From the IMG/VR virus record IMGVR_UViG_2703719354_000002: a stretch of DNA of 13,257 bases; one strand, given 5' to 3'. This DNA is from a virus (lineage: Duplodnaviria; Heunggongvirae; Uroviricota; Caudoviricetes). The notes beneath the pieces are model-generated. The model was not told where the DNA came from. It was given only the letters and a program-made list of their open reading frames with translations, and made no database searches. Made by a program: the position numbers and the translations under genes. Shown in pieces: positions 3,937 through 13,257 of the stretch. Every line of letters starts with the position of its first letter. Positions within the stretch are counted from its first letter, which is position 1.

Positions 3937-4332
3937 TTATTGCATTCTGGCCAGGCCGCGCTCTGTCATTTCAGCTGCCACACCGGCAGAGACACGGAAC
4001 GCCGTTCCCGGCAGCACAAATGCCACAGCCTCATCCCGCGTGGCGTGAAGTGCATCAGTATGCAGCGTCACCAGTGCCACAACCGTGACCAGATCAGCCG
4101 TATCAGTCACGGTATCCGGCTGCGCTGATACAACCTCATTTTCATGTCCGGTCAGCGCATTTTCCGGGCTGACAGATGTGTCCTGACCGGCAGCGTCATC
4201 CGTGTCATCAAGCTCCTCTTCCAGCTCTGCCACACGGAGTGCCAGTTCTTCTTTCGTCCCCGTCAGGCTGACATCACGGTTCAGTTGCTCACCCAGCACC
4301 TGAAGACGGGCAATCAGTTCATCTTTCGTCAT
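3937..4332 (-). CDS. FI: Head assembly / DNA packaging accessory protein gpFI
   Basis: The internal start MTKDELIARLQVLGEQLNRDVSLTGTKEELALRVAELEEELDD... (ATG at 4330..4332) of track ORF 3937..4371 matches lambda gpFI, with an acidic linker and conserved C-terminus ...GVAAEMTERGLARMQ. Confidence 0.88.
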   Translation of the reverse strand: MTKDELIARLQVLGEQLNRDVSLTGTKEELALRVAELEEELDDTDDAAGQDTSVSPENALTGHENEVVSAQPDTVTDTADLVTVVALVTLHTDALHATRDEAVAFVLPGTAFRVSAGVAAEMTERGLARMQ

Positions 4333-7116: not shown

Positions 7117-10797
<3,681 letters not shown>

Positions 10798-10823
<26 letters not shown>

Positions 10824-11343
10824 TCAGCAACCCCGGTATCAGTTCATCCAGCGCGGCTGCTTTGTTCATGGCTTTGATGATATCCCGTTTCAGGAAATCA
10901 ACATGTCGGTTTTCCAGTTCCGGAAAACGCCGCTGCACCGACAGGGGGATCCCGTCGAGAATACTGGCAATTTCACCTGCGATCCGCGACAGCACGAAAG
11001 TACAGAATGCGGTTTCCACCACTTCAGCGGAGTCTCTGGCATTTTTCAGCTCCTGTGCGTCGGCCTGCGCACGCGTAAGTCGATGGCGTTCGTACTCAAT
11101 AGTCCCTGGCTGGAGATCTGTCTCGCTGGCCTGCCGCAGTTCTTCAACTTCCCGGCGCAGCTTTTCGTTCTCAATTTCAGCATCCCTTTCGGCATACCAT
11201 TTTATGGCGGCGGCAGAGTCATAAAGCACTTCATTACCCTTGCCACCACCCCGCAGAACGGGCATTCCCTGCTCCTGCCAGTTCTGAATGGTACGGATAC
11301 TCGCGCCGAAAATGTCAGCCAGCTGCTTTTTGTTGACTTCCAT
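10798..11343 (-). CDS. Nu1: Terminase small subunit gpNu1 (181 aa)
   Basis: Track ORF MEVNKKQLADIFGASIRTIQNWQEQGMPVLRGGGKGNEVLYDSAAAIKWYAERDAEIENEKLRRE... matches lambda gpNu1: N-terminal winged-HTH, C-terminal gpA-binding tail, and a cosB immediately upstream. Confidence 0.95.
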
Positions 11344-11520
11344 TGTTCATTCCACGGACAAAAACAGAGAAAGGAAACGACAGAGGCCAAAAAGCTCGTT
11401 TTCAGCACCTGTCGTTTCCTTTCTTTTCAGAGGGTGTTTTAAATAAAAACATTAAGTTACGACGAAGAAGAACGGAAACGCCTTAAACCGGAAAATTTTC
11501 ATAAATAGCGAAAACCCGCG
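11344..11520 (-). promoter_or_regulatory. cosB, lambda-type terminase small-subunit binding region (R1, R2, R3 with an AT-rich IHF-like spacer)
   Basis: Three GGAAACG-core elements at about 11371..11384 (aaggaaacgacaga), 11409..11423 (inverted, ctgtcgtttcctttc) and 11471..11482 (aacggaaacgcc), with an AT-rich segment at 11437..11465 between R3 and R2. Reverse complement matches the lambda left-end sequence with a few substitutions. Confidence 0.85.
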
Positions 11521-11532
11521 AGGTCGCCGCCC
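11521..11532 (-). other. cosN copy 1: 12-nt cohesive-end sequence (GGGCGGCGACCT on the phage strand)
   Basis: Plus strand aggtcgccgccc is the reverse complement of the lambda cohesive end GGGCGGCGACCT. Flanked by a lambda-like left end on one side and lambda-like right-end DNA on the other. Confidence 0.9.
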
Positions 11533-11731
11533 CGTAACCTGTCGGATCGCCGGAAAGGACCCGCAAAATGATAATAATTATCATCTACATGTCACAACGT
11601 GCATCTACGCCATCAAACCACGTCAAATAATCAATTATGACGCAGGTATCGTATTAATTGATCTGCGTCAACTTAACGTAAAAACAACTTCAGACAATAC
11701 AAATCAGCGACACTGAATACGGGGCAACCTC
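11533..11731 (-). other. Phage right-end (cosQ-containing) DNA adjacent to cosN, lambda-like with substitutions
   Basis: Reverse complement reads ...GAGGTTGCCCCGTATTCAGTGTCGCTGATTTGTATTGTCTGAAGTTGTTTTTACGTTAAGTTGA..GCAGATCAATTAATACGATACCTGCGTCATAATTGATTATTTGACGTGGTTTGATGG...GGTCCTTTCCGG.GATCCGACAGGTTACG, which matches the lambda right terminus as recalled with scattered mismatches. Homology to lambda stops near 11731. Confidence 0.75.
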
Positions 11732-11926
11732 ATGTCAACGAAGAACAGAACCCGCAGAACAACAACCCGCAACATCCGCTTTCCTAACCAAATGATTGAA
11801 CAAATTAACATCGCTCTTGAGCAAAAAGGGTCTGGGAATTTCTCAGCCTGGGTCATTGAAGCCTGCCGTCGGAGACTAACGTCAGAAAAGAGAGCATATA
11901 CATCAATCCAAAGTGATGATGGATGA
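11732..11926 (+). CDS. Small (64 aa) ribbon-helix-helix-like putative DNA-binding protein, copy 1
   Basis: Track ORF MSTKNRTRRTTTRNIRFPNQMIEQINIALEQKGSGNFSAWVIEACRRRLTSEKRAYTSIQSDDG: basic N-terminal arm, a short beta-strand-like NIRF, then two helices split by a KGSGN loop, typical of the Arc/MetJ/CopG fold. It may belong to the small YlcI/YnfO-like proteins found next to cos in E. coli lambdoid prophages, but that is from memory and unverified. Confidence 0.6.
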   Translation: MSTKNRTRRTTTRNIRFPNQMIEQINIALEQKGSGNFSAWVIEACRRRLTSEKRAYTSIQSDDG

Positions 11927-12074
11927 ACATCCCGGTTTCTTCCACCATCGCACCGGAAAAGCGACTATGAGGGTAACCCTGCGTCTGTCAGCACAGTAAA
12001 ACCCGGTGTGCATCGTTTTTGATTATTCCCGCACACTCACGCAGAAGGAATTCCCCGTCGGGCTACGGTCATGG

Positions 12075-12488
12075 TTAATGCGGGAATACGGCGACGATAC
12101 AGCGCAAAAACTGTCGCTGCATGGATAAAGGGATGGAATCAAGCGTACTGGATAACGCCATTGCCAGCTTACTGAGGGCAAAAATACAGAACCCGGTGTC
12201 AATAAGTTTTCCTTTTGACACCTCATTTTTTAACTGCTGTGTAACAGCCTGTTCTGCTGTCAGTTCCCATCTGGCAATAAGCAATTTCTCCTCATAGTCG
12301 TCTTCGCTATCGCCATCAGGCACATCGTTTTTACTTCTCCTCAGATACGATATGTAAAAATCGCGCCAGGCATCCAGATCCAGTTGCCCTCGCTTATTCG
12401 ATATCGGGGCACCCGGCAATTTCTGCAATCTGCGAAGCTGGCGATCGGTCAGACTTAAATGCCTGGCAACTTCAGTCTGCGTAGCCAC
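12075..12488 (-). CDS. Divergent, C-terminally truncated Nu1-like small terminase paralogue (137 aa, GTG start)
   Basis: Track ORF MATQTEVARHLSLTDRQLRRLQKLPGAPISNKRGQLDLDAWRDFYISY...DTGFCIFALSKLAMALSSTLDSIPLSMQRQFLRCIVAVFPH. Compared by eye with this window's own Nu1, the winged-HTH pattern and the central block align (ETAFCTFVLSRIAGEIASILDGIPLSVQRRF vs DTGFCIFALSKLAMALSSTLDSIPLSMQRQF), but the protein ends 9 aa after that block. GTG start at 12486..12488 preceded by GAGGTGAGGAG. Confidence 0.65.
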   Translation of the reverse strand: MATQTEVARHLSLTDRQLRRLQKLPGAPISNKRGQLDLDAWRDFYISYLRRSKNDVPDGDSEDDYEEKLLIARWELTAEQAVTQQLKNEVSKGKLIDTGFCIFALSKLAMALSSTLDSIPLSMQRQFLRCIVAVFPH

Positions 12489-12535
12489 TCCTCACCTCGC
12501 AAAAACTCTCACCTCACAATCACAACAAAACCGGT

Positions 12536-12634
12536 CATGTCCGGTTTACATGTCTGTTTTTTGTTCATGTCCGGTTCACAGAAGACCTGTTTTTATATTT
12601 TTCATATAGTTAACTTGAAGAGATACCGGACATG
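12536..12634. repeat. Three copies of the 9-bp motif CATGTCCGG (two direct, one inverted; 30 and 60 bp apart) between cosN copy 2 and the Nu1-like gene
   Basis: catgtccgg at 12536..12544 and 12566..12574 on the plus strand; ccggacatg at 12626..12634. It occupies the position where cosB sits relative to the first cos. Confidence 0.6.
12590..12620 (-). promoter_or_regulatory. Candidate sigma70-like promoter for the Nu1-like gene (weak -35 TTCAAG, 16-nt spacer, -10 TATAAA)
   Basis: Minus strand reads ttcaag-ttaactatatgaaaaa-tataaa. Judged by eye only; the -35 is a poor match. Confidence 0.25.
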
Positions 12635-12671
12635 GATCCCGGAAAATTTTCATAAATAGCGAAAACCCGCG

Positions 12672-12683
12672 AGGTCGCCGCCC
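12672..12683 (-). other. cosN copy 2, identical 12-nt cohesive-end sequence
   Basis: Second aggtcgccgccc, exactly 1151 bp from the first, inside the second repeat copy. Same right-end flank and the same 33 bp of left-end flank as copy 1. Confidence 0.85.
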
Positions 12684-12882
12684 CGTAACCTGTCGGATCG
12701 CCGGAAAGGACCCGCAAAATGATAATAATTATCATCTACATGTCACAACGTGCATCTACGCCATCAAACCACGTCAAATAATCAATTATGACGCAGGTAT
12801 CGTATTAATTGATCTGCGTCAACTTAACGTAAAAACAACTTCAGACAATACAAATCAGCGACACTGAATACGGGGCAACCTC

Positions 12883-13077
12883 ATGTCAACGAAGAACAGA
12901 ACCCGCAGAACAACAACCCGCAACATCCGCTTTCCTAACCAAATGATTGAACAAATTAACATCGCTCTTGAGCAAAAAGGGTCTGGGAATTTCTCAGCCT
13001 GGGTCATTGAAGCCTGCCGTCGGAGACTAACGTCAGAAAAGAGAGCATATACATCAATCCAAAGTGATGATGGATGA
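12883..13077 (+). CDS. Small ribbon-helix-helix-like protein, copy 2 (identical to 11732..11926)
   Basis: Track ORF with an identical 64-aa translation; lies within the second repeat copy. Confidence 0.6.
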   Translation: MSTKNRTRRTTTRNIRFPNQMIEQINIALEQKGSGNFSAWVIEACRRRLTSEKRAYTSIQSDDG

Positions 13078-13257
13078 ACATCCCGGTTTCTTCCACCATC
13101 GCACCGGAAAAGCGACTATGAGGGTAACCCTGCGTCTGTCAGCACAGTAAAACCCGGTGTGCATCGTTTTTGATTATTCCCGCACACTCACGCAGAAGGA
13201 ATTCCCCGTCGGGCTACGGTCATGGTTAATGCGGGAATACGGCGACGATACAGCGCA

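Follow-up and report, generated by a model that had tools for sequence, protein, structure and literature searches.

The repeat array beside the second cos site

In this work we analysed a 13,257-nucleotide stretch of viral DNA (Caudoviricetes; IMG/VR record IMGVR_UViG_2703719354_000002), referred to below as the window, and focused on a short repeat array at positions 12531 to 12640, which lies in the position of cosB beside the second of two cos sites. The minus strand of the window is a lambda-type head module with Nu1, gene A, W, the portal gene and further head genes. It is 99.7% identical to prophages of many E. coli genomes, and an exact look-up of the gpA sequence returned ten contexts, all of them ordinary lambda-type. 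A 619-bp block that includes cosN and the phage right end (block R) is present twice, at 11488-12106 and 12639-13257, and the two copies are 100% identical. The 532 bp between them (12107-12638) consist of the array and the first 127 codons of a small-terminase gene different from Nu1. This gene, which encodes a protein of 169 aa in intact relatives, is called terS' here and its product TerS'; the array is called cosB' and its three sites R1', R2' and R3'. Most likely (we put the probability at roughly 80%), the array, with the consensus TCATGTCCGGTT and the core TCCGGTT, is the cosB subsite of lambda-like cos phages that form a packaging-specificity class of their own, as judged by sequence comparison.

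A preliminary description of this DNA had reported three copies of a 9-mer, two direct and one inverted, spaced 30 and 60 bp apart. This is borne out by exact matches to CATGTCCGG at 12536-12544 and 12566-12574 on the plus strand and at 12626-12634 on the minus strand, with start-to-start spacings of 30 and 60 bp and all three copies inside 99 bp. Over the whole window and both strands there are four exact copies, whereas 200 dinucleotide-preserving shuffles of the window averaged 0.14 copies and peaked at 2, none of them reaching four. The motif is thus not at chance frequency. The fourth copy (4143-4151, plus strand) is located in the head-gene region, isolated from any neighbouring copy, and is probably a chance occurrence. 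The repeat unit is longer than nine nucleotides, as it extends to TCATGTCCGGTT(T/C) and was detected as a 16-nt direct repeat family (D10) with 94% identity. An inverted copy with one mismatch, CATGACCGG (12531-12539, minus strand), overlaps the first site and creates the palindrome AACCGGTCATGTCCGGTT. Read on the minus strand (12528-12547), the R1' palindrome AAACCGGACATGACCGGTTT followed by TGTTGTGATT resembles a weak intrinsic terminator hairpin just upstream of terS', the second arm of which is not kept in all variants.

The array has intact counterparts in other genomes. In E. coli O145 prophages (designated L001 and L002), the segment corresponding to 12107-13257 is colinear with only one mismatch in 1151 bp, and the order is terL, terS' (169 aa), array, cosN, a right end with ylcI, and then Rha and lysis genes. 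In the intact relatives, the array is located between cosN and the 169-aa terS', followed by terL and portal genes. The same cosN-array-terS'-terL context is present in the plaque-forming phages PhiR12_1 to PhiR12_5, whose viability follows from their propagation on K-12 or E. coli C, as well as at 80 IMG/VR loci. The 5' end of terS' together with the array was found in 1167 of 5426 complete E. coli genomes (about 21%), including O157:H7, with up to four copies per genome. The intact relatives, the viable phages and these 1167 genomes show that, in a lambdoid packaging module that is very common, this array is what normally fills the place of cosB. Literature searches on the motif string, cosB, packaging specificity and lambdoid prophages found no paper describing the array, and the only papers matching the motif string were unrelated ones on p53 and on primers.

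Among 24 distinct E. coli cosB' variants, the three 11-mers form conserved islands while the spacers vary. Columns polymorphic in at least two sequences numbered 3 of 33 within the sites and 24 of 72 elsewhere between bp 46 and 150 (Fisher p=0.008, an approximate value that is indicative only, as the 24 sequences are related). Across these variants, only a single flanking base of R1' varies. Of the R1' palindrome, the half in forward orientation is lost in two variants (L016 and L020) and mutated in three others (L039, L049 and L061). In the window itself, position 12624, where the TCCGGTT core of R3' ends, has changed from T to A, a substitution found in none of the 23 other cosB' variants nor in PhiR12_1. 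Two further observations concern rearrangements around the sites: in L016 and L020, the DNA between R1' and terS' has been swapped for unrelated sequence; and in L081, an IMG/VR locus, R2' and R1' have been fused into one site by a 30-bp deletion between direct repeats. An unequal exchange like that in L081 is the origin that Feiss proposed for the simple cosB of N15 (PMC4669245).

When distances are counted from the cohesive end, the core of R3' lies at bp 54-59, an IHF (integration host factor)-like site at bp 72-84, the cores of R2' and R1' at bp 109-114 and 139-144, respectively, and the terS' start at bp 196. These positions follow the plan of lambda and of phage 21 (Table 1). The candidate IHF site, I1', is in an A+T-rich (75%) spacer, and its position and strand agree with those of lambda I1 and of the annotated I1 of phage 21. 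R3' in forward and R2' in reverse orientation, 60 bp apart around the IHF-like site, constitute a feature of lambda-like cosB. A site in the R3 position with terS downstream is also seen in PhiR12_1, in Klebsiella, Citrobacter and Salmonella, and in the Aeromonas phage PhAER-1.

Table 1. Positions of cosB elements in base pairs from the cohesive end (phage 21 positions are those annotated in OL657228, the phage 21 record having been located via its gp1 sequence)
Element	This array	Lambda (cos copy 1)	Phage 21
R3	CATGTCCGGT, bp 50-59	bp 53-59	bp 50-65
I1 (IHF)	TTTCATATAGTTA, bp 72-84	AAACATTAAGTTA, bp 74-86	bp 74-86
R2	bp 108-118, inverted	bp 113-119	bp 107-122, inverted
R1	bp 138-148	bp 153-159	bp 150-166
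terS start	bp 196	~bp 190	bp 189

TerS' homologues that are 63-69% identical occur in Klebsiella, Citrobacter and Salmonella, where they were traced to contigs, and more distant ones (about 42-48% identical) occur in the Pseudomonas phage Y8, the Aeromonas phages PhAER-1 and phiARM81ld, and three metagenomic contigs. At each of the eight non-E. coli loci counted (about seven independent lineages), one to three copies of TCCGGTT are present within 150 nt before terS, where about 0.02 copies of a random 7-mer are expected by calculation for both strands. A motif search near related cos sites, suggested in the preliminary description, thus recovered the core before terS in 8 of 8 cases and at a fixed distance from cosN wherever this could be located, that is, in the enterics and Aeromonas but not in Y8 and the metagenomic contigs L093, L094 and L095, in which the cohesive end was not located. 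TCCGGTT occupies bp 54-60 in E. coli as well as in Salmonella and Citrobacter, bp 55-61 in Klebsiella and bp 56-62 in PhAER-1; an inverted core occupies bp 110-115 in Klebsiella and bp 109-114 in the other three enterics. Klebsiella has three sites, the third (bp 152-157) being in reverse orientation like R1'. Between bp 72 and 85, Klebsiella has a perfect IHF consensus (AATCAATTGGTTA), and Salmonella and Citrobacter have sites with one mismatch. The bases 5' of the core vary (E. coli has CATG, Klebsiella has CATT, and both Salmonella and Citrobacter have GATG) while the core remains constant.

In PhAER-1, whose record begins at the cohesive end, the tandem sequence TCCGGTTCCGGTT occupies bp 56-68, with the start of terS at bp 79. 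This tandem is also found about 10 nt before terS in phage Y8 and in the metagenomic contig L093, and in L094 and L095 the second tandem copy is degraded (TCCGGTTCCGGCT). Otherwise the DNA around the core in these Aeromonas/Pseudomonas-type loci cannot be aligned. The core stays within bp 54-62 while the terS start moves from bp 159-196 in the enterics to bp 79 in Aeromonas.

TerS' and the proposed packaging specificity

In BLASTP alignments, TerS' (169 aa) matches lambda Nu1 over residues 73-164 only (47% identity) and phage 21 gp1 over residues 64-166 only (40% identity), and no similarity to either protein was detected for its first 60 or so residues. Among the protein family databases, PHROGs splits TerS' between phrog_7289, which covers residues 2-90 and is of unknown function, and phrog_1790 (terminase small subunit); the Pfam Phage_Nu1 match in the open reading frame (ORF) of the window is limited to residues 49-127, while that of the Nu1 protein encoded in the same window (10798-11343) covers its full length with an E value of 5e-101; and TerS' is not represented by any NCBIfam model. 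Members of the TerS' family share a conserved stretch of 60 residues at the N-terminus (MATQxEVAxHLxLTDRQLRRLQKLPGAP...), with R16, Q17 and R19 invariant or nearly so. TerS' thus is, by its sequence, a conserved body with an exchanged, putatively DNA-binding head, matched by an exchanged cosB.

An AlphaFold model of TerS', built from a 14-sequence alignment, has a mean predicted local distance difference test (pLDDT) score of 71, with values of 80 to 86 over residues 1-50. It predicts helices at residues 4-10, 15-22 and 38-54, two long helices at 64-91 and 98-126, and two C-terminal helices at 132-154 and 156-168. A Foldseek search with this model gave no significant match (best E value 0.34). 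The top entries, all non-significant, were MerR-type winged helix-turn-helix proteins, excisionases and the RppC/lambda-TerS entry 6hn7 (58 columns, root-mean-square deviation 2.5 Å). As weak evidence, the predicted fold of the N-terminal domain agrees with the class known for the DNA-binding domain of Nu1.

The preliminary description had proposed a packaging-specificity swap of the kind seen between lambda and phage 21. Comparison with the intact relatives strongly supports the notion that the array has changed together with the DNA-binding domain of TerS, given: the context in viable phages; the R3-I1-R2 geometry; the conservation of the sites; the co-occurrence of the core and the N-terminal domain across genera; and an unrelated N-terminal domain joined to a homologous remainder. 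The copy in the window, however, is truncated and without a cognate terL. By analogy to lambda and phage 21, the winged helix-turn-helix N-terminal domain of TerS' (MATQxEVAxHLxLTDRQLRRLQK...) would bind R3', R2' and R1'. IHF would bend the spacer between R3' and R2', which are inverted around the presumed bend site. The C-terminal domain of TerS' would then place TerL on the adjacent cosN, which is identical to that of lambda, so that the DNA could be nicked and packaging could start.

Among the closest known systems is phage 21, with which the array shares the cosN/cosQ logic and the approximate positions of R3 (bp 50-65), the IHF site (bp 72-86) and the inverted R2 (bp 107-122). The R core of phage 21, TCATGTCGG, differs by a single base from the corresponding TCATGTCCGG of the array. 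The 9-mer had been considered unrelated to known R sites, which is correct for CGTTTCC of lambda and GAGGTTGTTGTT of N15 but not for phage 21. There are, however, several differences: the core here has one extra C and is 3 bp closer to cosN; R1' is inverted relative to R1 of phage 21; the downstream half is GGTT(T/C) here and GGnCCTT in phage 21; and the core conserved across genera, TCCGGTT, is not the part common to phage 21 (CATGTC). The annotated R sites of phage 21 (TTTCATGTCGGACCTT, TTTTCATGTCGGGCCTT and AATCGTGTCGGTACTT) are to be compared with TCATGTCCGGTT here, and R sites of the phage 21 form, TCATGTCGGnCCTT (R3 TCGTGTCGGTACTT), are not present in the array at the annotated positions. 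The C-terminal two-thirds of TerS' are homologous to gp1, as described above, but the N-terminal domains do not align. Because of this, we consider cosB' a class separate from the phage 21 type. DLP12 and Qin of K-12 had been tried as controls of the phage 21 type and were rejected, as both are lambda-type.

With lambda, the array shares the order cosN, R3, I1, R2, R1, terS and terL, the 60-bp distance from R3 to R2, as well as the first 45 bp of the left end, which are identical. The R sites themselves are different (CGTTTCC(G/T)TTCT in lambda and CATGTCCGGTT(T/C) here), the orientation of R1 is opposite, and the R2-R1 spacing is 30 bp instead of 40 bp. Neither the CGTTTCC core nor the Nu1 DNA-binding domain that define the lambda specificity belongs to the array; the lambda-type set is located separately at cos copy 1. 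In the N15/Monarch class, a lambda-like shared cos plan is likewise combined with a different R3 and a different TerS recognition helix, R3 being GAGGTTGTTGTT at bp 48-59 (Feiss et al., PMC4669245). The array has TCCATGTCCGGT at bp 48-59, so that this R3 is not present; the N15 R3 is unrelated to TCCGGTT, and N15 TerS aligns with TerS' over residues 59-127 only. N15 shows that R sites can be reduced in number to one, which may be compared with the cosN-proximal sites alone in the Aeromonas and Pseudomonas relatives and with the fused R2'/R1' of L081.

Several observations weigh against the assignment of the array as a cosB subsite of its own class. R1' is oriented as R2', whereas R1 of both lambda and phage 21 is oriented as R3. 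Salmonella and Citrobacter have only two sites, although at identical positions; given this and the orientation of R1', the third site may be accessory. The IHF-like site of E. coli has two mismatches to the consensus. The lambda-type cos also has TCCGGTT, at bp 41-47 (window 11486-11492; also in L003 and L096, which are DLP12 and Qin), and because of this the 7-mer core alone is not unique to the cosB' class. Furthermore, the Foldseek search was without a significant match, and terS' in the window is cut at codon 127 with no cognate terL following. As its cognate protein is truncated, the array is probably inactive in cis here. With regard to the lambda-type TCCGGTT, it is located in the spacer between cosN and R3, 13 bp closer to cosN than R3' is; the cosB' type has TCCGGGA instead, and the homology of the two cos types stops there, at bp 45.

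The repeats might alternatively be operators at a terS' promoter, serving autoregulation by TerS' or control by another regulator, as the preliminary description had considered when it placed the array over a candidate promoter. The sites are indeed 50-145 bp upstream of the terS' start, and a hairpin with a T-rich tract behind it can arise from the R1' palindrome. However, the promoter scan gave no support: no sigma-70-like match overlaps the array, the only matches being in the right-end block. Lambda-type late genes are transcribed by read-through from pR', and one half of the palindrome is lost or mutated in the variants named above. Wherever the cohesive end was located, the R3' core is tied to cosN and not to the terS start, and it accompanies one type of TerS N-terminal domain, which argues for a terminase recognition site rather than an operator. 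We consider a role as operators instead of packaging sites very improbable. The notion that the three 9-mers are chance or slippage repeats without a function is less credible still, to the point of being negligible. The motif is short and has one more exact copy in an unrelated place (4143-4151), but the number expected by chance per window is far below that observed, the sites are conserved while the spacers vary, and other genera have the same core in the same position.

To our knowledge, genetic dissection of lambda-like packaging specificities has been confined to lambda, 21 and N15. TerS'/cosB' appears to be a widespread, experimentally uncharacterised class and a further instance of the kind of specificity difference seen between lambda and phage 21. 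If the assignment of the array as a cosB subsite is correct, such a class is present in roughly every fifth complete E. coli genome, with O157:H7 and O145 prophages among the carriers. TerS'-type prophages often reside beside lambda-type prophages with identical cosN and cosQ. Cross-packaging among resident prophages, or its absence, would bear on predictions of how Stx prophages, other prophages and cos-bearing satellites are mobilised in polylysogenic pathogens. A swapped DNA-binding domain together with an R site only one base from that of phage 21 would make a natural test case for TerS-cosB co-evolution, with a TCCGGTT core that can be traced from enterics to Aeromonas and Pseudomonas phages.

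The truncated local copy and its junction

The features of the window are listed in Table 2. At cos copy 1, the preliminary description had placed a lambda-type cosB containing GGAAACG three times, once in inverted orientation, and these cores were found at 11374, 11414 and 11474. Cos copy 2 (12639-12683) is identical to the sequence of copy 1 at 11488-11532. The GGGTCCT heptamer next to each cosN was read from the sequence, and we take it to be cosQ by its likeness to that of lambda.

Table 2. Features of the window discussed in the text
Feature	Coordinates	Strand	Remarks
Gene A	8898-10823	-	lambda-type, after Nu1
Nu1	10798-11343	-	Pfam Phage_Nu1
Lambda-type cosB, cos copy 1	11344..11487	-	GGAAACG cores at bp 53-59, 113-119 and 153-159; I1 at bp 74-86
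Block R copy 1	11488..12106	.	left-end bp 1-45, cosN, cosQ, phage right end with ylcI/ynfO (DUF3950) ORF
Truncated terS' ORF, 137 aa	12075..12488	-	codons 1-127 of terS' (12108-12488) plus 10 codons from right-end block
Novel joint	12106..12107	.	end of block R copy 1 / interior of terS'; no more than a 1-3 nt A-run in common
R1'	12536..12546	+	CATGTCCGGTT; reads AACCGGACATG in terS' sense; bp 138-148 from cohesive end
R2'	12566..12576	+	CATGTCCGGTT; bp 108-118 from cohesive end; inverted relative to R3'
Candidate IHF site I1'	12600..12612	+	TTTCATATAGTTA; bp 72-84; 2 mismatches to WATCAANNNNTTR
R3'	12624..12634	-	CATGTCCGGTA; bp 50-60 from cohesive end; consensus of relatives CATGTCCGGTT
Cos copy 2	12639..12683	-	12-nt cohesive end (12672-12683) plus bp 13-45 spacer common to lambda
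cosQ-like heptamer, cos copy 2	12707..12713	-	GGGTCCT; copy 1 counterpart at 11556-11562

The gene next to the array had been described as a Nu1 paralogue with a different winged helix-turn-helix. The N-terminal domain is indeed unlike that of Nu1 in sequence, but the gene itself is a fragment, consisting of 127 codons of a terS for 169 aa and 10 unrelated codons. The 137-aa product reads ...SMQRQF, then LRCIVAVFPH before the stop, and is without the last 42 residues of TerS', including the predicted helices 132-154 and 156-168. These 42 residues align with the C-terminal end of lambda Nu1, which binds TerL (PMC9026076). Damaged copies of terS' exist elsewhere. Frameshifted alleles of 126-130 aa (P0003, P0008, P0010, P0013, P0020 and P0024) share an out-of-frame tail, ...SWQWRYPVRLIPSLYPCSDSFLI, and as they occur in several E. 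coli genomes, complete chromosomes included, decayed copies are common. None of them has the junction of the window.

This junction, between the end of block R copy 1 and the interior of terS', was not recovered elsewhere. A 34-nt string across 12106/12107 had no match in IMG/VR, in the GTDB species genomes (one per species) or in the JGI metagenomes; a 301-bp query found no place spanning both sides in the 5426 complete E. coli genomes; the junction was not found in phage records or PLSDB; and the exact 137-aa product was not found in a collection of 15 billion proteins. A BLAST overlap suggestive of a 9-bp microhomology at the junction was dismissed, as direct inspection left only an A-run of 1-3 nt. 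Codon 127 of terS' (nucleotide 381) was also considered as a usual breakpoint of mosaicism or assembly, but there is no step in variability at this position among 42 alleles, and contig concatenation at standard breakpoints is therefore unsupported. Block R copy 2 reaches 13257, the final base of the window, which is equivalent to 12106, the base at the joint to the terS' fragment. This suggests a contig that stopped at an unresolved repeat.

The second cos of the preliminary description thus exists in the sequence, with a second cosN at 12672-12683, but it may not exist in a chromosome. In that case, the segment 12107-13257 would come from a separate, intact TerS'-type prophage of the same strain, attached during assembly after the shared 619-bp repeat; the array would be a normal working cosB elsewhere in the genome, and the 137-aa ORF would not exist. 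Such an origin, for which the chances are a little short of even, would be in line with: a junction and a protein that are absent from the public collections and records searched; a window that ends at the base equivalent to the junction; R copies that are fully identical and a segment that is only one base from the O145 prophage; and strains that commonly hold both types of prophage, with up to 14 matching places per genome. On the other hand, a de Bruijn assembler needs reads across the joint of R and terS', where there are only 1-3 nt of homology, and nucleotide 381 of terS' is not a common boundary of mosaicism or variability. Moreover, a real structure of the order A-R-Y-R-Z would likewise end a short-read contig at the end of R, because several prophages share R. 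A single illegitimate exchange between a lambda-type and a TerS'-type lambdoid genome would give exactly the order observed. Overall, a real joint and an assembly artefact are close to balanced, with a slight lean toward the former. Most likely, the local module is inert, being either a relic of illegitimate recombination between two co-resident lambdoid prophages or an artefact of assembling two prophages, and it is probably not a working packaging module. The duplicated copy should thus be treated with caution, as it may have arisen in assembly or be no more than the scar of a recombination.

Should the joint be real, some consequences can be derived from the genetics of cos duplications in lambda. 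The resident Nu1/A terminase would start at cos copy 1 and end at the first cosQ-cosN met in the next unit, that of copy 2, yielding a single-cos genome, so that the first chromosome of each series would lose the 1151-bp segment and the duplication could persist only in the prophage state. The local array would be usable only with a terminase provided in trans by a TerS'-type helper prophage.

A functional alternative is offered by the Rpp proteins of phage-inducible chromosomal islands (PICIs). These proteins have 135-153 aa, with a winged helix-turn-helix and an oligomerisation domain but without the TerL-binding stretch of 30-40 residues at the C-terminus, and their genes adjoin a cos with lambda-like cosQ and cosN but a foreign cosB, as in EcCICFT073 (PMC9026076, PMC6739421). 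The 137-aa product has the same domain content and likewise adjoins the cosB' and cosN of copy 2. It could be that the structure is real and functional, with the truncated TerS' and its own cos acting as a module of the Rpp-cos type or as a second entry site. The fragment would then heterodimerise with Nu1, or make use of the terminase of a TerS'-type helper, and thereby redirect or broaden the packaging of the prophage. Consistent with this, the 127 TerS' residues stop just past the predicted helix 98-126, and residues 73-127 are 47% identical to Nu1. If so, the prophage could be packaged by common TerS'-type helpers as well as by its own terminase, or the fragment could poison or redirect heterologous terminases through mixed oligomers.

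We consider this functional role very unlikely. The junction and the fusion protein are unique to the window, and the ORF ends in 10 adventitious codons; instead of being a conserved gene, it stems from a truncation of a genuine terS that is seen only here. The core of R3' has its unique substitution, and there are three R sites and an IHF site here as compared to a lone R3 in the PICI case. The array is flanked by the lambda-type head module and the phage right end, with no PICI backbone and no PICI genes nearby. A phmmer search with TerS' against all PDB chains, RppC entries included, returned no match with an E value below 0.7. From lambda cos-duplication genetics, tandem cos sites 1.15 kb apart should also be lost on lytic growth. 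Equally doubtful is the related notion that the tandem is real and selected, in which a lambda-type prophage would have captured a foreign cosB' cos with a TerS' fragment as an Rpp-like module at its birth.

An Rfam search of the whole window gave no match. Both R copies have the palindrome AATGATAATAATTATCAT (11564-11585 and 12715-12736), which belongs to the phage right end and is some 35-50 bp away from cosN. It fits the Fur-box consensus GATAATGATAATCATTATC at 16 of 19 positions, where 0.01 such matches are expected by chance, and it overlaps a sigma-70-like match (GTGACA-16-TATCAT) on the minus strand pointing towards cos and Nu1.

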